Of a stretch of DNA of 64,000 bases, positions 47,222 to 47,939 are shown one piece after another (position 1 is the stretch's first letter; the number at the start of each line of letters is the position of its first letter). The DNA comes from Eledone cirrhosa. Its lineage: Eukaryota. The DNA lies in assembly GCA_964016885.1 (NCBI GenBank), contig OZ024758.1, forward strand, positions 620,001-684,000, written 5' to 3'. Under the pieces are notes generated by a model. The model was given only the letters and a program-made list of their open reading frames with translations. It ran no database searches and had not been told where the DNA came from. Made by a program: the position numbers and the translations under genes.

Positions 47222-47225
<4 letters not shown>

Positions 47226-47939
47226 AAATAACGAAACGAAATTAAATTTCATTTCGTTTGTAACTCACTTTTGTATGACTGACGCTTAAACAATTAAGTT
47301 AAAAATGTACATCTACATATGCATACTGAAATACTAGTGTGTATATGAATACACACACGTATACATATGCAGATGTAACAAGTCTTTCACTGGTTGCTTT
47401 ACTGTGAGCAACCCAGCTATTCTGTATGTAAACACACAGACAAACCGGTTTTTAGAGTCATACTGGTTTTCGAGGAAACACCTTCCCTCTATTCTCCAGA
47501 AAGCCAGACAAGGAATATTGAACTAGTTTCGTTGTTGTTACAACTCATCAGCAATATTTACCTATCTACCGGCCTTTCTGGAGAATTGTAAAAGCACATA
47601 TCGTTATATGCTTTTTCTATGAAAATTAGTAGTGGGCAGACCAATTTGCATAGAGTGTGAGTACGCACCGGTTCAGCGGAGACGATAAAAACAAATAACG
47701 AAACGAAATTCAATATTCCTTGTCTGGCTTTCTGGAGAATAGAGGGAAGGTGTTTCCTCGAAAACCAGTATGACTCTAAAAACCGGTTTGTCTGTGTGTT
47801 TACATACAGAATAGCTGGGTTGCTCACAGTAAAGCAACCAGTGAAACACTTGTTATATCTGCATATGTATACGTGTGTGTATTCATATACACACTAGTAT
47901 TTCAGTATGCATATGTAGATGTACATTTTTAACTTAATT
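47222..47939. mobile_element. Retrozyme/PLE-like insertion (element E): 467-nt permuted unit plus 231-bp inverted arm
   Basis: 22-nt direct repeat 47222-47243 = 47689-47710; inverted arms 47292-47522/47709-47939 (2 mismatches); (TA)n on both sides. Confidence 0.9.
47514..47558 (-). ncRNA. Intact minimal type I hammerhead ribozyme
   Basis: AAUAUUG-CUGAUGA-GUUGU-AACA-ACAAC-GAAAC-UA-GUU^CAAUAUU: 7-bp stem I, 5-bp stem II with G10.1-C11.1, palindromic AACUAGUU stem III; predicted cut between 47521 and 47520. Confidence 0.9.

Follow-up and report, generated by a model that had tools for sequence, protein, structure and literature searches.

How does a 467-nt ribozyme unit come to lie beside an inverted copy of itself that starts at the predicted self-cleavage site? 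The question arises from a 64,000-nt stretch of the Eledone cirrhosa genome (C19:620001-684000 of 3.0 Gb), which is called the window here. Unit positions are numbered along the minus strand, with window 47710 as unit 1, and the predicted cut lies between unit 190 and 191. The preliminary description proposed that one cDNA was copied beyond unit length and that a second cDNA, primed from the other target end, ran off at a ribozyme-generated 5' end. Its layout of the locus was reproduced. The 22-mer repeat has exactly two copies in the window, at 47222 and 47689, 467 nt apart. The inverted arm (47709-47939) pairs with 47292-47522 with two mismatches in 231 nt, at 47847 and 47856, and opens as described with (TT)CAATATTCC, corresponding to unit 189-191. 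The features of the locus are as follows.

47185..47222: left (TA)n target tract, missed by the preliminary description
47222..47710, minus strand: arm A, 489 nt, made up of one complete unit of 467 nt and a further 22 nt
47222..47243: first copy of the 22-mer, at the 3' end of arm A
47222..47291, minus strand: 'tail' of ~70 nt separating priming sites B and A, in arm A only
47491..47587, minus strand: extended stem I enclosing the ribozyme; its 3' strand is unit 197-209
47514..47558, minus strand: type I hammerhead whose stem III is a minimal palindrome; cut predicted between 47521 and 47520
47689..47710: second copy of the 22-mer, at the 5' end of arm A; the final TT is common to arm B
47709..47939, plus strand: arm B of 231 nt, covering unit 189-419 and facing arm A head-to-head
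47939..47958: right (TA)n target tract, likewise missed before

The RNA 3' end of arm A is priming site A (unit 22-26), and its 5' junction at unit 464-1 is located within a 29-nt hairpin. Arm B has its 3' end at priming site B (419-424) and carries two private substitutions. The 22-mer overlap exists because the priming site of the family is fixed and the cDNA stopped within the 29-nt hairpin. A target-site duplication is unreadable within (TA)n. Over the element, no open reading frame of 150 amino acids or more was found, and the reverse transcriptase (RT) and GIY-YIG frame of an autonomous Penelope-like element (PLE) is absent. Two small inverted-repeat elements are located to the right of the insertion beside (TA)n, at window 48012-48070 and 48255-48362. 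Their arms pair over 23 of 25 and 25 of 25 bases, and they are possibly other short repeats.

The single intact hammerhead of the preliminary description was found again as the only site when both strands of the 64 kb were scanned for type I hammerheads. On the minus strand, it has its core at 47551, a stem I of 7 bp, a stem II of 5 bp, CUAG as stem III and the triplet GUU. The folding z-score of the segment is -4.70, which none of 200 shuffles equalled. Rfam family HH9 matches 47498-47569 with an E value of 3.7e-8 and 38.6 bits, below the gathering score of 52; at the gathering score, Rfam has no match in the window. Support is provided by covariation. Over 13 natural variants, hand-picked from the family of the window and from sister families, both partners are exchanged in 9 of 14 pairs, and 91% of the pairing cells pair in the ribozyme structure compared to 27-45% with slid structures. 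The core is intact in nearly all units examined, with the triplet GUU in 510 and GUC in 105, counts in which overlapping loci appear more than once. GUU, the triplet of the subfamily in the window, is slow-cutting, a point against the ribozyme-circle reading given below. Together with the minimal stem III, it would slow re-cutting and yield a stable circle.

The unit belongs to a large family. For a 27-mer immediately 3' of the cut, 6,451 exact matches were counted genome-wide, thus at least 6,451 units, and for the A end joined to (TA)n, 2,080. The best copies are 96-100% identical across the full unit. Many copies stand in tandem, as had been expected from a unit copied beyond its length, and arrays reach 20-30 units. 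Reads from four sequencing runs of unspecified kind show the presence of the family only.

The ends of the insertions were parsed at 98 loci anchored on the A end, drawn from the first 100 of the 2,080 A-end matches (99 taken, one duplicate dropped). Two arms in head-to-head orientation are present at 72 of them: 56 pair A with B, none A with A, six A with another end, and ten have one end outside the locus. Site A is defined as unit 22-26 and site B as unit 414-426, 70 nt upstream of A. Wherever the two ends both fall at A or B, in 56 insertions, the combination is therefore A+B (p 3e-17 against free choice). Single-arm rows (n=24) include a short inverted stub in 11, and four further rows were clipped. 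A second sample of 22 best hits comprises 14 AB, one AA and seven other insertions; one B+B insertion was observed (L188). Tandem units with an inverted arm are the norm of the family. The earlier proposal of priming from both target ends is supported, with one arm ending at A and the other at B, and so is copying beyond unit length, by the 467-nt unit plus 22 nt of arm A and by multi-unit arms in the family.

Most gaps at the arm-to-arm junctions lie around -2 to 0, and the distribution tails off into templated inserts. An apparent junction hot spot at unit 303 was an artefact of the reference, since it disappeared once subfamily references were used. Identical or near-identical arm-to-arm junctions recur at different loci (L227/L228, L229/L230, L232/L233, L090/L231, L062/L073). 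These recurrences, with A and B roles swapped in L227/L228, point to microhomology hot spots. At L173:569-635, 65 nt of foreign GC-rich sequence separate two arms that both start at unit 204.

Sister retrozyme families are located at L278:7900-9700, L281:5560-6650, L279, L287, L083, L204, L229 and L091. They have units of ~440-510 nt, 65-75% alike, with GUA triplets and covaried stems. The L281 family is also arranged head-to-head, and its ends in (TA)n are at sites homologous to A and B.

By its sequence, the family is of the non-LTR retrozyme kind, in agreement with the retrozyme-like RNA first suggested for the window. It shares with metazoan non-LTR retrozymes (PMC7229834; bioRxiv 10.64898/2026.07.22.740005, both as far as available) a non-coding tandem unit with low GC and one type I hammerhead each, a range from monomers to long multimers, and the co-occurrence with PLEs. 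The unit is short, dispersed and arranged as dimers to multimers, and each one carries a type I hammerhead, though one below the Rfam gathering score. The length of 467 nt exceeds the 170-400 nt of PMC7229834 and is within the 51-972 bp of bioRxiv 2026.07.22.740005. The word 'inverted' is absent from the main text of PMC7229834, and insertion ends are not analysed in the available part of bioRxiv 2026.07.22.740005. Circles and cleavage have been shown for the retrozymes of these studies, whereas the family described here is known from genomic sequence alone. Of the Xenopus retrozyme dimers, eight of nine remained uncleaved in vitro, and the same study derives non-LTR retrozymes from PLEs (bioRxiv 2026.07.22.740005).

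The arrangement of the arms resembles EN+ PLEs, which also show partial tandems, a one-ended tail, a preference for (TA)n and, at the 5' end, an inverted copy with a 5' truncation (PMC8557442, in the part available). The family differs by lacking an open reading frame, by a tail of ~70 nt instead of 30-40 nt and by stems I and II of canonical size. The window copy is one insertion of this non-LTR retrozyme family, a non-autonomous PLE by its tandem, inverted and 5'-truncated form with a one-end tail. The origin of such tandem and inverted PLE insertions with a one-sided tail was termed undefined (PMC8557442). In vitro, Anolis Poseidon PAc also has two internal RT starts that bound the tail, and both DNA strands are cut and extended (PMC11167929). 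The available part of that study shows no strand difference in the start site; here, A pairs with B in each insertion. Literature searches, with subscription papers and preprint supplements mostly outside their scope, found no publication with evidence for paired priming or for joints lacking the ribozyme core.

L1 twin priming yields head-to-head arms with both 3' ends toward the target and microhomology at the joint. These three properties are shared by the family. Unlike in L1, the site of the second priming is fixed, and the sequence copied by the arms is repeated and overlaps between them.

A protein for this priming may come from autonomous PLEs. Elements with an RT followed by a C-terminal GIY-YIG domain are abundant in the genome. 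Four PLE families were considered. Two of them end in (TA)n at two sites that fall on opposed arms, 62 nt apart in the L277 family (16 and 17 rows, some loci overlapping) and 33 nt apart in the L280 family. The L286 family ends mostly at one site, and the reference of the fourth (L275) gave no end information. A partner search reduced 10,595 candidate GIY-YIG sites to 150 scored and 50 retrieved loci. The 3' regions of 18 PLE loci showed no sequence likeness to the unit. BLAST matches beside GIY-YIG loci, considered as pLTRs, turned out to belong to sister retrozyme families with insertions in (TA)n close by, and the other scores above shuffled sequence were TA/CA-rich sequence. The partner PLE protein is inferred from the target and end pattern. 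Young PLE families with long open RT-GIY-YIG frames are located at L268:4809-7622 (minus strand), L270:1775-5062 and L271:4722-6629 (minus strand). They have a CxxxxCxxC motif before the nuclease and minimal hammerhead-like cores in the 3' regions, and are Neptune/Nematis-like by the criteria in the available part of PMC8557442.

A run-off at a ribozyme-made end had led to the prediction that 5' truncations pile up at the cleavage site. Junctions were collected genome-wide with patterns that required family sequence downstream and non-family letters upstream, and the rows were judged by eye. The pattern at 189-191 gave 17 rows: 11 junctions, that of the window included, one core skip and five small indels. 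About 10 junctions are expected in a uniform distribution. A pattern of 82 rows, four indels dropped, gave 14 junctions at 187-191, 13 at 192-196 and 51 at 197-201. Relative to a first control at unit 89-103 (56 rows, three dropped, 53 junctions), the rate at the cut site (187-191) is 0.96-fold; the predicted pile-up is missing. Downstream, the rate is 3.5-fold at 197-201 (p 5e-10) and 2.8-fold at 202-209 (83 rows, two dropped). A second control at unit 265-276 (30 junctions in a listing of 100 of 155 rows, mostly TG-deletion variants) gave 30 against 30 over the same part of the genome, which lowers the excess to 1.7-fold corrected (p 0.024) and 1.4-fold uncorrected among the matches listed. 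Among 168 sampled junctions, two are at 187-191 with 1.8 expected, and ten at 198-212 (p 0.046); the whole histogram does not depart from uniform (p 0.29).

The excess of 1.7- to 3.5-fold lies 6-18 nt downstream of the cut and is accompanied by stutters at the edge of stem I. It amounts to ~180 stops in 6,451 passes, or 3%, and read-through of the ribozyme is the rule in about 97% of passes. Microhomology as sole cause of the excess at 197-209 was rejected, as a simulation yields only 0.9- to 1.1-fold for these bins; it does account for single-base spikes at 200 and 209. Arms stopping at 198-209 are first-pass in 23 of 29 cases compared to 19 of 40 elsewhere (p 0.012), and many have partner arms that pass the ribozyme. 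A structural block is favoured for the bulk of the stops at 197-209, with true ends in a minority.

Applied to the window copy, the run-off reading takes as template a linear RNA, two or more units long, whose 5' end was made by the ribozyme; arm B would have run off this end, and arm A would have halted shortly before the second primer. The geometry matches a linear dimer. Arm B is first-pass, as are most arms stopping at 198-209, and exact starts at 191 with repeats or jumps are present at L218, L222, L290, L075 and L077. The window junction, however, has neither repeat nor jump, only the TT overlap, and junctions at the cut occur at the background rate. The stop of arm A requires no second primer because both arm types often stop at unit 441-461 (window 47250-47270), a hairpin beside site A with 17 of the 168 sampled junctions, partly from very short arms. 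A linear run-off is rather unlikely for the window copy, and the start of arm B at 189-191 is likely an ordinary stop.

The cleavage fossil expected at this locus is found elsewhere, in a few copies that form a small minority. At two loci, the base that directly follows the cut is joined to the beginning of the ribozyme core, and this joint occurs twice in each. Followed along the cDNA as it was synthesised, L218 (C1:218.59 Mb) repeats unit 197/198-203 six times before it reaches 191, resumes at 162, makes a full round back to 191, resumes at 163, and ends on its third arrival at 191. L290 (C5:81.65 Mb) repeats a unit without 163-190 and 326-426, and both joints are the same in both rounds; it consists of one arm, with site B missing. 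A pattern search for core-internal deletions found three genome-wide: L218, L290 and one removing 160-175. Repeats at 191-203 are also present in L220-L223, L075 and L077, with both arms stopping there in several. Seven further repeat loci were hand-picked. The unbiased count of stutters is 2 of 29 junctions at 198-209 versus 1 of 94 in general, too few to test. At L237:1327-1332, a jump at the base of stem I, from unit 200 to 150, leaves out the complete ribozyme. A 5' end at exactly 191 joined to a 3' end trimmed to stem I is the trace to be expected if cleavage were followed by ligation or by a template jump. An alternative is a jump across an uncut core, 191 being the end of stem I too. 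Cleavage in vivo is likely. The available part of the study on Anolis Poseidon PAc has no RNA reads ending at the cut, whereas the two loci here join exactly there (PMC11167929).

Sequence variants bear on the form of the template. One haplotype plus singletons across all units of both arms was observed in 20 of the 24 insertions shown; the other four (L012, L014, L024, L120) have partly shared variants. Arrays of at least three units (21, hand-chosen; two more dropped for too few units) are without a partly shared variant in 14 cases and show shared or periodic variants in seven. L108 has 18 identical units over both arms, and the 20 units of L112+113 contain a single singleton and a single shared variant. 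The two arm mismatches of the window are absent from every other copy examined with the same context and are therefore private. They support the recent age assigned before and suit an insertion that took place recently and was copied from one template. The simplest template would be a monomer circle, and the identical units of L108 would fit its rolling-circle copying. Circles have been proposed, not shown, as RT templates for retrozymes (PMC7229834, in the part available). Shared and periodic variants cannot come from a single monomer circle without later DNA-level change.

Templates could instead be long linear read-through transcripts of homogeneous arrays that the ribozyme cuts occasionally. 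This is consistent with the arrays of 20-30 units and with periodic variants in L114, L117 and L109+110. In vitro, the PLE protein used unprocessed RNA, and ribozyme cleavage was unnecessary for insertion by Anolis Poseidon PAc (PMC11167929, in the part available). However, parent arrays gather singleton variants (0-9.5 per kb), yet most insertions share none between units or arms, and the core-less joint of L290 is at no other locus under the pattern used, which had three matches genome-wide. A template without circles is considered unlikely. A monomer circle is preferred.

Some arrays changed further at the DNA level. Arrays of 15-20 kb with irregularly periodic variants at C1:81857242-81877287 and C1:5.738-5.753 Mb suggest a later expansion into satellite. 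Such expansion, and the duplicates L123 and L124, would suit an origin of the whole arrangement as a DNA-level satellite with fold-back inversions, or as an assembly artefact. This is highly improbable: it is contradicted by two fixed 3' ends that lie in (TA)n throughout thousands of scattered insertion sites, by the covariation of the ribozyme and by private substitutions that distinguish the arms.

Copy number, the (TA)n target, paired fixed 3' ends, scattered 5' junctions, one haplotype per insertion and covarying stems are established. The window copy is, with good probability, a recent insertion of a 467-nt hammerhead repeat with head-to-head arms in (TA)n, for which a Penelope-type RT/GIY-YIG protein likely primed the two cut ends on a single RNA, probably a circle. 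Tandem loci would be transcribed, and the RNA would self-cleave and be ligated into monomer circles, a step that is reasonably likely. Very probably, a PLE protein, presumably as a dimer, cuts both (TA)n strands, with one end primed at A and the other at B. Each RT would roll on for 20 to >9,000 nt, with extra stops where the folded ribozyme begins, and the cDNA ends would be joined through a microhomology of a few bases. In the window copy, the stop of arm A would lie within the hairpin at 453-481 and that of arm B at 189-191.

A wider reading is held tentatively, at slightly less than even chance. The family may be a record of the whole Penelope/retrozyme cycle, in which a PLE dimer primes both (TA)n ends at two fixed sites on one ribozyme-made circle and both RTs roll. 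The folded hammerhead would be a template boundary at which the telomerase-related RT stutters, and the rare core-less units would be direct fossils of cleavage and ligation in vivo. If true, a single model would cover the tandem, inverted and tail structures of PLEs. The window copy is an ordinary form of the family and by itself adds little. The family is a good test bed: with thousands of short, fully readable young insertions, the origin of tandem and inverted forms and the circle template become countable. A+B pairing, one haplotype per insertion and repeated core-less units are the genomic predictions of double priming on a circle.
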